This document shows positions 21,333 to 28,560 of a stretch of 64,000 nucleotides of DNA, piece after piece; position 1 is the stretch's first letter, and each line of letters opens with the position of its first letter. The stretch lies in the sequence record PV067732.1. The stretch is one strand, 5' to 3'. This DNA comes from Acinetobacter phage vB_AbaS-Bhz15. The translations under genes and the position numbers were made by a program. Below the pieces are notes generated by a model. The model saw nothing but the letters and a program-made list of their open reading frames with translations. It had not been told where the DNA came from and made no database searches.

Positions 21333-21965
21333 ATGGATAACATCGATTTAGCATTAAAAGTAGTTGAAGATCAAAATGATGCATTAGATTATCTTCATAC
21401 TGCTATCGCAGTAAATGGCGACAAATATTCAAACATGATTGATATTCTAAAAGTAGTTGCAGCATCAAACTACCGACAACGCATCATGATTACTGGCGTA
21501 GGTAAAAATTCAAATCTTGCAACTAAAGCGTCTGAAACATTTGCAAGCCTTGGCATCCCATCCATGTATTTGAACACATGCCATTATTCTCATGGTGATG
21601 CAGGATTTATCGGGCATGATGACGTAGTTATCCATGTTTCACGTTCTGGTAAAACAGAAGAAATGCAATATATGGCGCGTCATTTGAAGACTATTCGTCC
21701 TAATGTTCTTCAAATCTTGTTGCACTGCAATAGCCAATTAACTGAAGAGCAAAAGGCGCCATTTGACATCGAATTTGGTATTCCGGGCATTGTCGAATGC
21801 GATGATAATCATCTTGCACCAACAACAAGTACAACAGTGCTATTGGTTTTGTTGGATACTATTGGTGTAATTTTGTCTAAACACCTTAGATTCACTCGTG
21901 AAGATTTTTATTCATACCATCCAGGTGGTTCACTTGGAGCAATGCTCAAATCTGAATCAAAATAA
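21333..21965 (+). CDS. SIS-domain sugar-phosphate isomerase, KdsD/GutQ arabinose-5-phosphate-isomerase-like (210 aa, SIS only)
   Basis: GVGKNSNLATKASETFASLGIPSMYLN...HGDAGFIGHDDVVIHVSRSGKTEEM follows the KdsD-type pattern G.GKS..I..K...T.AS.G.P..F.....HGD.G.I...D.V...S.SG...E. Confidence 0.7.
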   Translation: MDNIDLALKVVEDQNDALDYLHTAIAVNGDKYSNMIDILKVVAASNYRQRIMITGVGKNSNLATKASETFASLGIPSMYLNTCHYSHGDAGFIGHDDVVIHVSRSGKTEEMQYMARHLKTIRPNVLQILLHCNSQLTEEQKAPFDIEFGIPGIVECDDNHLAPTTSTTVLLVLLDTIGVILSKHLRFTREDFYSYHPGGSLGAMLKSESK

Positions 21966-22024
21966 TTTACTTTACATAAGAACTATGATATAATTGTCAT
22001 AGTTCTTTCTTAGGAATAAACAAT

Positions 22025-23698
22025 ATGAAAAAAGTCGTAATTTTAGGTGCAGGACTTGCAACTCGCCTATATCCAATCACCCATCATATTCCTAAAGTCT
22101 TAGTGAATTATAAGCAACACACAATTTTGCATCATTTATATTCATTGTACACTAGACTTGGTGCTGAACAAATTATTGTGGCTGTTCATAGCAAGTTTGC
22201 TTCACAAGTTAAAGAATATGCAAAGTTGTTCGGGCTTGACATTGTTGTCGAAACCGTCGATGAAGCGTATGGTTCGGCTTATGCAATTTCTAGATTAGCA
22301 GATCATGTCAACGGTCACAACGTTGTTTTTAACTGGTGTGATGTCATCCCGGATTTTGATGCATTTCGATGGGATGCAAATGCAATCTATACCTTTGGTG
22401 ATGAATGTCGATATAGCTACAATGGCAAAACTTTGAAAGAACACATTGTTGGTACAGGTGGTAACGTTGTAGGCATATACCAATACCGTGATTTCTTTAT
22501 TTCACGTATCAATGACAAAGATGAAGCTAATGAGTTCTTTAAAGGGCGTGATTTTGTTGAATTAATTGACACAACAAATGAAGCATTTTATCAAGATTAT
22601 TTGCTTAATTTAGTTGACTTAGGGGACAAGCCTAAGCTTGAAATTGCACATCGTAATCGTGAACTTAATCGTGAATTCAACCAAGTGACTATGGCCTCAG
22701 GTGTTGTTTATAAAGCGGCAATCAATGAAAAAGGACGTCAATTGCAAAAAGAAGAACTTGCATGGTATGCAAAGGTTGATAGCCCTGCATTGCCAAAAAT
22801 TCTTGATCGTCGTGAAACTGACAAAATAATGTCATTCAAAATGGAACGTATCATCGGCAAACCGATGTTTGAAGTGTATACGCCAGAATTATTGCCGAAA
22901 ATTCTCGAGACTCTCAAATTTGATAAAATGCCAGAGTTTACATCTCGTGAACAGATCATCAACGATTATCAATATGAGGTCATTGACAAAGTCATGAGCC
23001 GTTGTGATGAAATTAAAGGAGTCATCAAATCATTTGGCGACATCGAATATGTCAATAATGTCAAAATCGGACGTTTAGAAACAATGTTGAAGCAAGCATT
23101 TGCACATTTAACATATGAAGCAAACGATAAAGATTATTATGTTATTCATGGCGATCCAAACTTTAGCAATTTGATGCTTGATCAAAATGGCGAAGTTCGT
23201 TTAATTGATCCACGTGGATATTTTGGCAAAACAAAAATCTATGGGCCTCGAATTTATGATGAAGCTAAAGTGCTTTATGCATTATCAGGATATGATAAAT
23301 TTAATTCAGATCATATGTGGGGTGGATTAGCTATTAATGGCAATGCTGCAACGATCAATATTGAACCATTAAGTGTAACATCTCTTCATAGTAAATATTT
23401 TAACGAATACCATCATCTCTGGGTTGCAGTGATTTGGATTGCTCTTGCAGGATATTTCAAAAATAATCCATTGAAATCAGTTAGTGCATTCTACTATGGT
23501 ATGTATTTGTTAACGACGGCTCTTGATAAAATGGGACGTCGCCTGAAGGATGGATCAGTGGCTCATGATTCAGGATTAGTTCATGCAGTACTATCTACAA
23601 AAAATCCAGACAAATGGCTATTAACTGATCTTGAAACAGGTGAAAAATATCGCCCTTCGAAATTTATTGGTGATATGCACTGGGAGAAAATTCAATGA
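22025..23698 (+). CDS. bifunctional sugar-1-phosphate nucleotidyltransferase (N-terminal) / APH- or choline-kinase-like sugar kinase (C-terminal), 557 aa
   Basis: The N-terminus MKKVVILGAGLATRLYPIT matches the G-x-G-x-R-L signature of RmlA/GlmU/HddC-type NDP-sugar pyrophosphorylases. The C-terminal YVIHGDPNFSNLMLDQNGEVRLIDPRG matches the HGD....N catalytic loop and D-x-x-G of the APH/ChoK/AmgK kinase fold. Confidence 0.7.
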   Translation: MKKVVILGAGLATRLYPITHHIPKVLVNYKQHTILHHLYSLYTRLGAEQIIVAVHSKFASQVKEYAKLFGLDIVVETVDEAYGSAYAISRLADHVNGHNVVFNWCDVIPDFDAFRWDANAIYTFGDECRYSYNGKTLKEHIVGTGGNVVGIYQYRDFFISRINDKDEANEFFKGRDFVELIDTTNEAFYQDYLLNLVDLGDKPKLEIAHRNRELNREFNQVTMASGVVYKAAINEKGRQLQKEELAWYAKVDSPALPKILDRRETDKIMSFKMERIIGKPMFEVYTPELLPKILETLKFDKMPEFTSREQIINDYQYEVIDKVMSRCDEIKGVIKSFGDIEYVNNVKIGRLETMLKQAFAHLTYEANDKDYYVIHGDPNFSNLMLDQNGEVRLIDPRGYFGKTKIYGPRIYDEAKVLYALSGYDKFNSDHMWGGLAINGNAATINIEPLSVTSLHSKYFNEYHHLWVAVIWIALAGYFKNNPLKSVSAFYYGMYLLTTALDKMGRRLKDGSVAHDSGLVHAVLSTKNPDKWLLTDLETGEKYRPSKFIGDMHWEKIQ

Positions 23699-27382: not shown

Positions 27383-27441
27383 TTCTGAAAATGGAGCCTT
27401 CGGGCTCCATAAATACTACTACACTTTCTTTGAGATGAAAC

Positions 27442-28560
27442 ATGAAAATCTTATACATTCCATGTCGATTTATTACTTTTAATGCCAACTATATTTCAGG
27501 TGGCCTTGAATCGGTCCAATTGAACTTTATCAAAACGATGAGCAAGAAGCATCAAATTGATTATATTGCATTTGGCGATGAAACATTTGGACCTTACAAA
27601 GTAAACCCAATCTCTATTGACTATCCGATTGTTGACAAATATACGGTAAAACATGGCAAAAAGATCATTGAAAAAATTGCAGAACTTGATTGCTCCCAAT
27701 ACGATGCTATCGTAACTGTAGAGGCAGCAAAAGGTGTTATCAATGGTTTAATTAAACTAGGGCTTGGACCAAAGATTCGAAATTTATTGGCTACTCCACT
27801 TGACCCTACAATTCGCACACTTGTTTCTATTTGGCGCACTGCGGTATTCATTCACCAGAATGGCGGTAAAAATTTAGTTCCTACTCAAACCTTTAAAGAT
27901 TTGACATCTAAAGTTTATTCAAAAATGAACAGACGTTTAGCGGTAGGTGCCATTGATTTTGATTATTGGGCTAAGAATGACATCATCTCTGATAATTTCT
28001 TTCCAGCTACGTTAATCGAGAATCCGCCAGAAGTTTTGCCATCAAAGGGATATGTAGTACAAGCTCAACGGTATGACTTAAAATTTAGAAAGACAAATGT
28101 AGCATTAGAAGCAATGAAACATTGTCCACATAAAATTATTGCATTCTTGCCAAGACAGTGGGCACCTCCAAAGAAATATCTTAAAGAGCCTTTTGTGCAT
28201 ATGGATATACCTCGTAAAGCAATCCAAGATACAATTAAAGAAGCACTAGTTCTTGTAAATACTTGTCATGATACCGGTACTATTGAACATGGCTCAATGG
28301 AAGCTATTGAAAAGGGTGTTCCAGTATTACAACTTATTCAACGAGGTTATAGTCATGCCACGTTAGAACATGATCCAACTACACAAGTTGTATGGATTGA
28401 TGATGGTATGACAACCGAGGAAATTATTGCAGCTTATTCTGATGCGTTAAATAATTTCACCGATACATTTGAACAACGAGTAAATCGTGCAAATGCATTA
28501 TACGAACAATACCGCCCTGAACGTGTATTTGCACTATGGGAAAAGGCACTTCTGGAGTAA
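27442..28560 (+). CDS. putative glycosyltransferase, paralog 2 (372 aa)
   Basis: Tandem paralog of 26261..27382, preceded by the terminator at 27392..27409. Confidence 0.5.
   Translation: MKILYIPCRFITFNANYISGGLESVQLNFIKTMSKKHQIDYIAFGDETFGPYKVNPISIDYPIVDKYTVKHGKKIIEKIAELDCSQYDAIVTVEAAKGVINGLIKLGLGPKIRNLLATPLDPTIRTLVSIWRTAVFIHQNGGKNLVPTQTFKDLTSKVYSKMNRRLAVGAIDFDYWAKNDIISDNFFPATLIENPPEVLPSKGYVVQAQRYDLKFRKTNVALEAMKHCPHKIIAFLPRQWAPPKKYLKEPFVHMDIPRKAIQDTIKEALVLVNTCHDTGTIEHGSMEAIEKGVPVLQLIQRGYSHATLEHDPTTQVVWIDDGMTTEEIIAAYSDALNNFTDTFEQRVNRANALYEQYRPERVFALWEKALLE

Follow-up and report, generated by a model that had tools for sequence, protein, structure and literature searches.

The cluster for arabinosylation of 5-hydroxycytosine (5hoC) in DNA has been characterised in Acinetobacter phage DLP3 (Lee et al., NAR 2026, PMC13326640), and related work covers Escherichia phage RB69, HY126 and Maestro. 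DLP3 DNA yielded nucleosides with m/z 376, 508 and 640, and tri-arabinosyl-5hodC was shown in it by MS/MS and NMR. The TS-fold proteins DLP3 gp80 and RB69 gp48 were demonstrated experimentally to be 5-hydroxy-dCMP (5hodCMP) synthases, and C146, L143E, D169N and N177D were validated on nine further homologs as the diagnostic signature of such enzymes. Phosphorylation of 5hodCMP was demonstrated for an RB69 gp1-type kinase. Single glycosyltransferases (GTs) gave no activity on 5hoC-DNA, DLP3 gp76 and gp77 jointly attach the third arabinose in vitro, and RB69 makes mono- and di-arabinosyl 5hoC (all PMC13326640). As cited in the same paper, Maestro carries arabinosylated 5hodC (Mahler et al., Cell Host Microbe 2025), and the arabinose route of HY126 leads from A5P over Araf-1,5-bisphosphate and Araf-1-P to UDP-Araf (He et al. 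2026), AfhE contributing the nucleotidyltransferase and kinase activities.

The window analysed here comprises 64,000 nucleotides of Acinetobacter phage vB_AbaS-Bhz15 (PV067732.1), a Hadassahvirus of Acinetobacter baumannii. Eight tightly packed, co-directional open reading frames, all on the plus strand, were confirmed within positions 21333-28560 (Table 1). Judged by orthology, this block is with a probability of roughly 0.9 an arabinosyl-5-hydroxycytosine (ara-5hoC) DNA hypermodification cluster of the Twarogvirinae Acinetobacter phages, and the product expected in place of C is predicted to be beta-D-Araf-(1->5)-beta-D-Araf-(1->3)-alpha-D-Araf-5-hydroxy-dC. The original prediction of a self-contained cytosine hypermodification island agrees with the studied orthologous DLP3 cluster. 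Its view of the enzymology as uncharacterised has been overtaken by Thomas 2018, Mahler 2025, He 2026, Lee 2026 and the structures in the PDB: the cluster is already known rather than new, a published pathway in a T4-like Acinetobacter phage. Family scans (Pfam, PHROG, NCBIfam, PDB) favour assignment of its proteins as SIS/A5P isomerase, NTP_transferase plus APH, HAD and TMK.

Table 1. Features of the putative ara-5hoC block and its pathway in the window
Feature	Position	Strand	Length	Remarks
SIS-only arabinose-5-phosphate isomerase (Ru5P -> Araf5P)	21333..21965	+	210 aa	ortholog of DLP3 gp83, RB69 gp55
Stable intergenic hairpin, isomerase/fusion gap	21978..22007	+		MFE -16.1 kcal/mol, z -4.7
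Bifunctional nucleotidyltransferase/kinase fusion	22025..23698	+	557 aa	ortholog of DLP3 gp82, RB69 gp53+52, HY126 AfhE
Small HAD phosphatase (Araf1,5P2 -> Araf1P)	23695..24075	+	126 aa	ortholog of DLP3 gp81, RB69 gp51, HY126 AfhF
TS-fold synthase	24075..24779 (alternative start 24072)	+	234 aa (235 aa)	ortholog of DLP3 gp80, RB69 gp48
GT-B glycosyltransferase GT1, proposed alpha-arabinosyltransferase 1	24785..25729	+	314 aa	ortholog of DLP3 gp79, RB69 gp46:47
TMK-like P-loop nucleotide kinase (putative)	25717..26259	+	180 aa	ortholog of DLP3 gp78, RB69 gp45
First GT4-like GT-B arabinosyltransferase	26261..27382 (alternative start 26237)	+	373 aa (381 aa)	ortholog of DLP3 gp77 (beta-arabinosyltransferase 2/3), homolog of RB69 gp3 (ORF003c)
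UUCG-tetraloop hairpin between the paralogous transferase genes	27391..27410	+		MFE -15.5 kcal/mol, z -4.7
Second GT4-like GT-B arabinosyltransferase	27442..28560	+	372 aa	ortholog of DLP3 gp76 (beta-arabinosyltransferase 2/3)
gp56 dCTPase/dUTPase (removes dCTP, supplies dCMP)	41063..41581	+		outside the island, part of the pathway

The proposed location in the gene 43-41 interval is borne out by the flanking genes. Upstream lies a C-terminal fragment of gp43 (17392-18621; PHROG DNA polymerase, E 4e-159), followed by nine small ORFs and the block, and downstream lie gp40 (28536/28563-28874) and then gp41 (28917/28935-30431). From three ATGA overlaps which had been claimed only the one at 23695 was found. 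The junction at 24072 reads TTGATG. The likely start there is the ATG at 24075, which has a single base in common with the TGA stop; the alternative TTG start would give a TTGA overlap. The ATG of the kinase at 25717 overlaps the upstream GT1 frame by 13 nt. The hairpin between isomerase and fusion gene is annotated as a terminator in Maestro; the core of the second hairpin is GGAGCC-UUCG-GGCUCC.

Gene for gene, in the same order and orientation, the block matches gp83-gp76 of DLP3 with 70-92% amino acid identity. There the cluster is likewise placed between DNA polymerase and gp40/gp41, and the D169N synthase signature and the paralogous GT4-like transferase pair are common to both. DLP3 is a Lazarusvirus with about 78% nucleotide identity to the present Hadassahvirus; divergence is greatest in GT1 (70%), followed by the TMK-like kinase (73%) and then the fusion enzyme (74%). 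At the nucleotide level the region is 98.8% identical to AbTZA1 and, over the whole island, 95% to Maestro, another Hadassahvirus, whose proteins are 87-100% identical (six of the eight 99-100%). A mosaic patch over GT1 and kinase (77-88% nucleotide, 87% and 94% amino acid identity) is the part most diverged from Maestro, and a change of specificity may have taken place there. RB69 gp45-gp55 and gp3 show about 43-71% amino acid identity to the block. In both phages the 43-41 interval runs from the isomerase through the fusion enzyme, the HAD phosphatase and the 5hodCMP synthase to GT1 and the TMK-like kinase. RB69 has, however, a single gp3-type transferase, encoded at a distant site beside rIIA, where the present phage has two in-cluster paralogs, and its interval contains the additional p049 and p050 (U32-peptidase-like) and uvsX, which are absent here. 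Structures of the HY126 series match the synthase (9iqu/9iqc/9ir2, E 4e-110), the HAD phosphatase (9iqw, E 5e-45) and the second paralogous transferase (9iqz/9ir0, 'phage HY126 glycosyltransferase', E 7e-88).

With T4 (gp42, gp1, alpha-gt, beta-gt) the block shares the logic, in which a dCTPase and a TS-fold enzyme for dCMP are combined with a kinase and GT-B transferases, and also the chromosomal neighbourhood of the glucosyl-hmC genes, the order in the T4 record being 43/imm.1/imm/42/beta-gt/segA/uvsX/40/41. T4 borrows UDP-glucose from the host without a sugar-nucleotide pathway, whereas the present phage encodes a route of its own. The two paralogs merely hold the beta-gt position, as T4 beta-gt has no sequence homology with the transferases of the block and gave no BLASTP match to either paralog. 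The gp56 dCTPase at 41063, which had been put forward in support of C replacement, is indeed homologous to T4 gp56 (59% identity along the full length, E 3e-72; PHROG 173 NTP pyrophosphohydrolase, E 4e-38), and dCTP would be excluded by it.

GT1 has a GT-B fold and is proposed to start the sugar chain at the cytosine 5-OH. The two tandem proteins of about 372 amino acids are paralogous as had been stated (56% identity). The first is 92% identical to DLP3 gp77 and 43% to RB69 gp3 (PHROG 8302, E 4e-178), the second 84% to DLP3 gp76 and 41% to RB69 gp3 (PHROG 8302, E 1e-183). That these three transferases fit a tri-glycosylation is in agreement with the DLP3 cluster. The TMK-like kinase carries the expected P-loop (GPDNAGKT) and a DRG motif and matches PHROG 761 'thymidylate kinase' (E 2e-30), with weak matches to Pfam AAA_28 and Thymidylate_kin. 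Its substrate is probably 5hodCMP; the label 'hm-dNMP kinase' was an interpretation rather than an observation. In the distant phages L006-L008, too, GT1 is directly followed by the kinase gene, and the two overlap slightly. In an unlikely variant GT1 arabinosylates free 5hodCMP, the translationally coupled TMK-like kinase is dedicated to the bulky ara-5hodCMP, the polymerase incorporates the mono-arabinosylated dNTP, and attachment on DNA is left for sugars two and three. It is favoured by the conservation of the trio of D169N TS-fold enzyme, GT1 and TMK-like kinase, with a GT1/kinase overlap of 13-22 nt, down to 31-35% identical homologs on unrelated large phage contigs, by the trio in Rhizobium RL38J1 (gp216-215-214), and by the exchange of GT1 and kinase as a single mosaic patch when compared with Maestro. 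There seems to be little need for a second kinase, since the gp1 kinase of T4-like phages already accepts 5hodCMP, and Lee et al., who saw no GT activity on 5hoC-DNA, left a first arabinosylation of the mononucleotide and of DNA undistinguished (PMC13326640).

In the preferred ara-5hoC cluster the base chemistry comes from the TS-fold protein (Pfam Thymidylat_synt, E 4e-15), which by its sequence is a flavin-dependent 5hodCMP synthase. In an alignment with E. coli ThyA, C146 is retained and L143E, D169N, N177D and W80A are found; the predicted Asp at the T4 Asp179 position is present, corresponding to E. coli Asn177. The TS-fold enzyme had been taken for a dCMP hydroxymethylase, an identity contradicted by the D169N signature and the closeness to DLP3 gp80. 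A T4-style hydroxymethylase, with one to three arabinoses on the hydroxymethyl group of hmC, is accordingly very improbable. The TS fold, the Asp at the dCMP-specificity position and the acidic residue 143 are as in T4 gp42, several GenBank records name the gene 'dCMP hydroxymethylase', and Thomas et al. 2018, who first put this reading forward for RB69, called the RB69 base ara-hmC. But D169N, W80A and G173V separate the synthase from gp42, a folate-dependent enzyme which in the same alignment retains D169 and W80, and the identity is 22% to gp42 versus 88% and 71% to the proven synthases DLP3 gp80 and RB69 gp48. Moreover, the orthologous systems gave a base fragment at 128.05 instead of 142.06 in MS/MS, together with NMR data, 18O2 labelling and bound flavin (PMC13326640), and the RB69 assignment is now called erroneous in the literature. 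With a TS homolog of this signature the sugar should therefore be ether-linked at C5 of 5-hydroxycytosine and not sit on hmC, so that 5hodC + n x 132 is expected and not hmdC + 132 Da.

Arabinose as the pentose and a phage-encoded NDP-sugar route had been predicted, and both agree with the DLP3 cluster; a SIS-only isomerase would start from Ru5P. The isomerase (Pfam SIS, E 6e-6; PHROG 5670 'arabinose 5-phosphate isomerase', E 6e-102) consists of the SIS domain only, with NCBIfam matches below the curated cut-offs (KpsF/GutQ, E 2e-30; KdsD, E 7e-27) and single-domain isomerases in the PDB (5uqi, E 6e-27; 3etn, E 2e-20; 2xhz, E 4e-14). It is 80% identical to DLP3 gp83, 100% to Maestro and 57% to RB69 gp55. 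In the fusion enzyme the N-terminal ~215 amino acids form a sugar-1-P nucleotidyltransferase (by orthology Araf1P + UTP -> UDP-Araf; NTP_transferase, E 7e-9, aa 3-100) and the C-terminal ~340 an APH/choline-kinase-like kinase (by orthology Araf5P -> Araf1,5P2; APH, E 0.004, aa 350-395). Further matches are PHROG 4098 (E 9e-244), NCBIfam sugar-1-P nucleotidyltransferases, PDB 1jyk and UGPases, and the RB69 halves are 59% and 51% identical. The HGDxxxxN (HGDPNFSN) and IDPRG motifs were found as described, whereas the supposed GxGxRL is actually GAGLATRL(x8)PK. The HAD phosphatase contains the announced DVDNT motif, is 82% identical to DLP3 gp81 and matches 'capsule biosynthesis phosphatase' (TIGR01689, E 9e-11), HAD-IIIA and PDB 1xpj (E 1e-9). 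A role of the sugar genes in host-surface or capsule chemistry instead of DNA modification, as suggested by AbTZA1 annotations ('capsular polysaccharide biosynthesis protein'), similar database names in MD-2021a and Mokit and the capsule- or LPS-related nearest NCBIfam families (KpsF-like isomerase and the phosphatase), is hardly credible, as these names are automatic homology transfers, the genes lie among the replication genes in tight linkage and coupling with the 5hodCMP synthase, the kinase and the three GTs, and the same set occurs in phages with demonstrated arabinosylated DNA.

In the ara-5hoC pathway gp56 would, by homology, convert dCTP to dCMP, which the TS-fold enzyme would hydroxylate at C5 with flavin and O2 to 5hodCMP, as shown for DLP3 gp80 and RB69 gp48. 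A dNMP kinase would yield 5hodCDP and then the triphosphate for incorporation by the phage polymerase, the in-cluster TMK-like kinase probably doing the same job as the gp1-type kinase. In a parallel branch the SIS isomerase would turn ribulose-5-P into arabinose-5-P. Dephosphorylation had been placed before phosphorylation at C1, contrary to the HY126 order as PMC13326640 cites it; by orthology to AfhE and AfhF the kinase domain would first phosphorylate C1, the HAD phosphatase would then strip the 5-phosphate, and the nucleotidyltransferase domain would yield UDP-arabinofuranose. GT1 is proposed to add the first alpha-Araf to the 5-OH, and the GT4-like pair would lengthen the chain on DNA by a second and a third sugar, both beta-Araf, the third as shown for DLP3 gp76 and gp77. 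If this is true, the phage would have a tri-arabinosylated genome shielded from restriction enzymes and DNA-targeting CRISPR.

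The eight ORFs of the island, all on the + strand and all found at the predicted coordinates, are one-to-one counterparts of gp83 to gp76 of phage DLP3 with the order kept, and the island is an already-known cluster. Lee et al. (NAR 2026, PMC13326640) described it in the Acinetobacter baumannii phage DLP3 (gp76-gp83) and in RB69, and between 2018 and 2026 it has been treated genetically, chemically and partly structurally in DLP3, Maestro, RB69 and HY126, so that its enzymology is not uncharacterised as had been supposed. The published arabinosyl-5-hydroxycytosine mechanism is the likeliest one for the island, with a probability of about 0.9. 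Every protein was compared with DLP3, Maestro, RB69 and T4 regions. In Maestro, which is reported to carry the modification, six of the eight enzymes are 99-100% identical to those of the window. Megablast of the island yielded T4-like A. baumannii phages, with nucleotide identities of 98.8% for AbTZA1 (Hadassahvirus), 98.7% for AB-Navy71, 95% for Maestro and about 78% for Lazarusvirus phages including DLP3; 51 records spanned at least 80% of the island region.

Coordinates of the features and amino acid identities of the island proteins to their counterparts (window coordinates unless a contig or region is named)
Feature	Coordinates	DLP3 counterpart	DLP3	Maestro	RB69
Isomerase	21333-21965	gp83	80%	100%	57%
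NTase/kinase fusion	22025-23698	gp82	74%	99.3%	59% and 51% (two halves)
HAD phosphatase	23695-24075	gp81	82%	99.2%	60%
TS homolog	24075-24779	gp80	88%	99.1%	71%
Glycosyltransferase GT1	24785-25729	gp79	70%	87%	48% and 46% (gp47, gp46)
TMK-like kinase	25717-26259	gp78	73%	94%	43%
Glycosyltransferase paralog GT2	26261-27382	gp77	92%	99.5%	43% (gp3)
Glycosyltransferase paralog GT3	27442-28560	gp76	84%	99.5%	41% (gp3)
gp56 homolog	41063-41581				
gp43, assumed N-terminal part	14164-15672				
gp43, C-terminal fragment	17392-18621				
Upstream hairpin	21978-22007				
Downstream hairpin	27391-27410				
Mosaic patch	24800-26130				
Trio, contig L006 (383 kb)	4426-7576				
Trio, contig L008 (122 kb)	4739-7594				
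Trio, contig L007 (356 kb)	2110-7682				
Extra genes p050 and p049, RB69 region (L002)	5532-6937				

Upstream the island is flanked by a C-terminal fragment of gp43 (PHROG DNA polymerase, E 4e-159), with nine small ORFs of unassigned function between this fragment and the isomerase (18611-21289); the one among them which was scanned, 20969-21289, gave no PHROG match. Downstream follow gp40 (Pfam Phage_head_chap, E 4e-22) and then the gp41 helicase. The T4 order 43, imm, 42, beta-gt, uvsX, 40, 41 had been quoted in agreement with the T4 record. While in T4 and RB69 uvsX follows the modification genes and precedes gene 40, it is absent from the 43-41 interval of the window (18611-21289 and 28560-28917 considered), and the nine small ORFs are found in its place. 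The gp43 gene of the window is split into a 409-aa ORF matching PHROG DNA polymerase and a 502-aa ORF assumed to be the N-terminal part, the two pieces being separated by about 1.7 kb with four or five small ORFs. The polymerase is annotated as a two-piece join in Maestro, and in AbTZA1 and DLP3 the C-terminal piece has a CDS entry of its own.

The genes of the island are closely spaced. From the three ATGA overlaps of the original prediction only the one at 23695 is a literal ATGA; the junction at 24072 reads TTGATG, the ATG at 24075 having one base in common with the TGA stop, and the ATG at 25717 makes a 13-nt overlap with the upstream ORF. The only two intergenic gaps of more than 20 nt both contain stable hairpins, with minimum free energies of -16.1 kcal/mol (upstream) and -15.5 kcal/mol (downstream) and z values of about -4.7 each. 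The upstream hairpin has TATAAT in its loop as part of a promoter-like match, TTTACT-17-TATAAT. The downstream one is a GGAGCC-UUCG-GGCUCC tetraloop hairpin followed by CATAAATA, which has one mismatch to the T4 late-promoter consensus TATAAATA. Scans of the whole island for sigma-70 promoters (40 promoter-like sites versus 36.8 expected from shuffled sequence) and for terminators (2 terminator-like sites versus 4.4 expected) gave no better results than shuffled sequence.

The nature of the modified base is indicated by the TS homolog (Pfam Thymidylat_synt, E 4e-15; PDB 9iqu/9iqc/9ir2, E 4e-110). It was aligned with T4 gp42 and with E. coli ThyA, the sequence of the latter having been checked as identical to PDB 1aob. 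The catalytic cysteine (E. coli C146) is retained, and the substitutions L143E, D169N and N177D, plus W80A and G173V, are exactly those of DLP3 gp80 and RB69 gp48, so that TS fold, C146, D169N, N177D and an acidic residue at 143, the sequence features of a synthase of 5-hydroxy-dCMP (5hodCMP), are all present. Lee et al. (PMC13326640) proposed that asparagine at position 169 (E. coli ThyA numbering) is diagnostic, and validated this with nine additional homologs. This position is asparagine in the window, Maestro, DLP3, RB69 and the homologs on the three distant phage-like contigs L006-L008, and aspartate in E. coli ThyA and T4 gp42. A dCMP hydroxymethylase of the T4 gp42 type, and with it 5-hydroxymethylcytosine (hmC) as the base, had been predicted. 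The TS homolog is only 22% identical to gp42 (E 1e-8), and it has N169 and A80, with loss of the folate-binding Trp80, whereas gp42 keeps D169, W80 and G173, and the hydroxymethylase has to be given up for a 5hodCMP synthase. DLP3 gp80 and RB69 gp48 convert dCMP to 5hodCMP with bound flavin and with oxygen derived from O2 (PMC13326640), and the residues in common suggest that the TS homolog of the window would carry out the same flavin- and O2-dependent reaction. According to MS/MS and NMR, all cytosine of DLP3 DNA has given way to 5-hydroxy-deoxycytidine bearing one, two or three arabinofuranoses; the sugar is joined to C5 by an ether bond, and the base fragment appears at m/z 128.05, not 142.06 (PMC13326640). 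Maestro is among the phages shown to contain arabinosylated 5hodC, as cited in the same paper, and a second paper calls the earlier 'ara-hmC' assignment for RB69 erroneous.

The pentose, arabinose, which had been anticipated agrees with the orthologous DLP3 cluster (PMC13326640), and the idea of a self-contained route to the sugar nucleotide is borne out by profile searches, which support the folds of isomerase, fusion enzyme and phosphatase. The 210-aa isomerase (PHROG 5670, E 6e-102) has a SIS domain of the KpsF/GutQ type (TIGR00393, E 2e-30 over residues 50-205; PDB matches 5uqi, 3etn and 2xhz). Its full-length score of 106 bits is below the NCBIfam curated cut-off of 203.7, and tandem CBS domains C-terminal to SIS were not found, so that this SIS-only protein is more like the single-domain isomerases 5uqi and 3etn than like the SIS plus CBS enzymes KdsD, GutQ and KpsF. 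Pfam (NTP_transferase and APH) and NCBIfam profiles divide the fusion enzyme, which aligns with DLP3 gp82 from end to end, into an N-terminal sugar-1-phosphate nucleotidyltransferase and a C-terminal APH/choline-kinase-like domain. The kinase motifs HGDPNFSN and IDPRG, like the DVDNT of the phosphatase and the P-loop of the TMK-like kinase, are present as claimed, while the nucleotidyltransferase motif is GAGLATRL..PK and not GxGxRL. The fusion enzyme is predicted to be an arabinose-5-phosphate 1-kinase/UDP-arabinose pyrophosphorylase of the type of AfhE, the fusion enzyme of HY126. The phosphatase has its DxDxT motif at residues 10-14 in a small capless HAD fold; it matches PDB 9iqw (E 5e-45), and TIGR01689 at E 9e-11, below the cut-off of that profile. 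For the HY126 route we rely on He et al. 2026 (Nat Chem Biol), which, like Mahler et al. 2025 (Cell Host Microbe), is used here as cited by PMC13326640 and PMC13390438. As cited in PMC13326640, ribulose-5-phosphate is converted to arabinofuranose-5-phosphate (Araf5P) by the isomerase, Araf5P to Araf1,5P2 by the kinase domain of AfhE, this to Araf1P by the HAD phosphatase AfhF, and Araf1P to UDP-Araf by the nucleotidyltransferase domain of AfhE. Kinase thus precedes phosphatase in that account, the reverse of the dephosphorylation before C1 phosphorylation originally proposed. A literature search under the Afh gene names yielded nothing further.

GT1 has the two Rossmann domains of a GT-B fold and is the proposed arabinosyltransferase 1, which would transfer Araf from UDP-Araf to the 5-hydroxyl of 5-hydroxycytosine (5hoC). 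GT2 and GT3 are paralogs with 56% identity to each other, homologous over their full length to RB69 gp3, to DLP3 gp76 and gp77 and to the solved HY126 glycosyltransferase (9iqz, E 7e-88); as homologs of T4 beta-gt they were rejected, BLASTP giving no match. With UDP-Araf as donor, DLP3 gp76 and gp77 together attach the third arabinose to RB69 DNA, and single transferases yielded no activity on 5hoC-DNA (Lee et al., PMC13326640). The di- or tri-glycosylation deduced from three transferases fits their correspondence to gp79, gp77 and gp76, and as orthologs of both gp76 and gp77 are present, the tri-arabinosyl form is predicted.

Put together, the pathway would begin with gp56, a true homolog (59% identity to T4 gp56) as had been expected, removing dCTP and supplying dCMP. 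The TS-fold flavoenzyme would hydroxylate dCMP, and kinases would raise 5hodCMP to the triphosphate for incorporation into DNA. Isomerase, fusion enzyme and HAD phosphatase would provide UDP-arabinofuranose from ribulose-5-phosphate, GT1 would add the first, alpha-linked Araf, and the two paralogs would add the second and third, beta-linked ones on the DNA. Hydroxylation of dCMP and addition of the third sugar have been shown in close orthologs, and the sugar-nucleotide steps, according to the citing paper, in the more distant ortholog HY126. The parts assigned to GT1 and to the TMK-like kinase are presumptive.

These two proteins are also the subject of a different reading, in which they act before replication as a linked and translationally coupled pair: GT1 would arabinosylate free 5hodCMP, the kinase would be a specialist for the nucleotide so glycosylated, and the polymerase would incorporate the glycosylated dNTP. 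The kinase has the P-loop GPDNAGKT and a DRG motif (PHROG 761, E 2e-30), and its scores, below the curated thresholds (Pfam Thymidylate_kin 15.6 bits versus 27, TIGR00041 21 versus 83), would make it TMK-like rather than a bona fide TMK. Homologs of GT1 with 31-35% identity occur on the three distant contigs within the same trio, a TS homolog (E143/N169/D177) followed by GT1 and by a 181-185-aa TMK-like kinase homolog, with 17-22 nt shared between the end of GT1 and the kinase gene. The locus numbers gp216, gp215 and gp214 of RL38J1 (Lee et al., PMC13326640) suggest the same arrangement. On L007 the nucleotidyltransferase/kinase fusion has a homolog too (34% identity). A Flavodoxin_2 gene (PF02525) lies directly upstream of the TS homolog on L006 and L008, which would fit a flavin reductase partner of the hydroxylase; the cluster of the window has no flavodoxin-like gene. 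The mosaic patch comprises exactly GT1 and the TMK-like kinase, with 77-88% nucleotide identity to Maestro between flanks of 97-100%, and AB-Navy71 is 99.6% identical to the window across 24785-28560; the two overlapping genes appear to have been exchanged as a unit. Linkage of the trio, this patch, redundancy with a gp1-type kinase and the fact that GT1 activity on DNA has not been reconstituted are the reasons for considering glycosylation before replication, which would break with the rule, known from T4, of adding sugars solely after DNA synthesis. We regard it as very improbable; it is simpler to take the kinase for a 5hodCMP kinase belonging to the module itself.

The RB69 cluster has two extra genes, for a 389-aa U32-peptidase-like protein, which Lee et al. 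(PMC13326640) call a 'sugar or heterocycle reductase', and a 79-aa ORF. The window and DLP3 both lack counterparts of the two, and the pathway as it occurs in the Acinetobacter phages therefore does not require them.

GenBank labels of the cluster are inconsistent and misleading. The HAD phosphatase is called 'phosphoheptose isomerase', the fusion enzyme 'capsular polysaccharide biosynthesis protein', 'mannose-1-phosphate guanyltransferase' or 'UDP-glucose dehydrogenase', the 5hodCMP synthase 'dCMP hydroxymethylase' or 'thymidylate synthase' and the arabinosyltransferases 'DNA alpha-glucosyltransferase'. A capsule or LPS role of the sugar genes, for which nothing but such database names speaks, can be dismissed. 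With the window, a group of phages whose modification cluster is already characterised gains a further member, and the practical value of the finding lies in annotation, since therapeutic Acinetobacter phages of the AbTZA1 kind are to be read as tri-arabinosyl-5-hydroxycytosine phages. This bears on how sensitive they are to defences by restriction, CRISPR and glycosylases and on nanopore sequencing of their DNA, and it may also bear on sensing of these phages by the host immune system.
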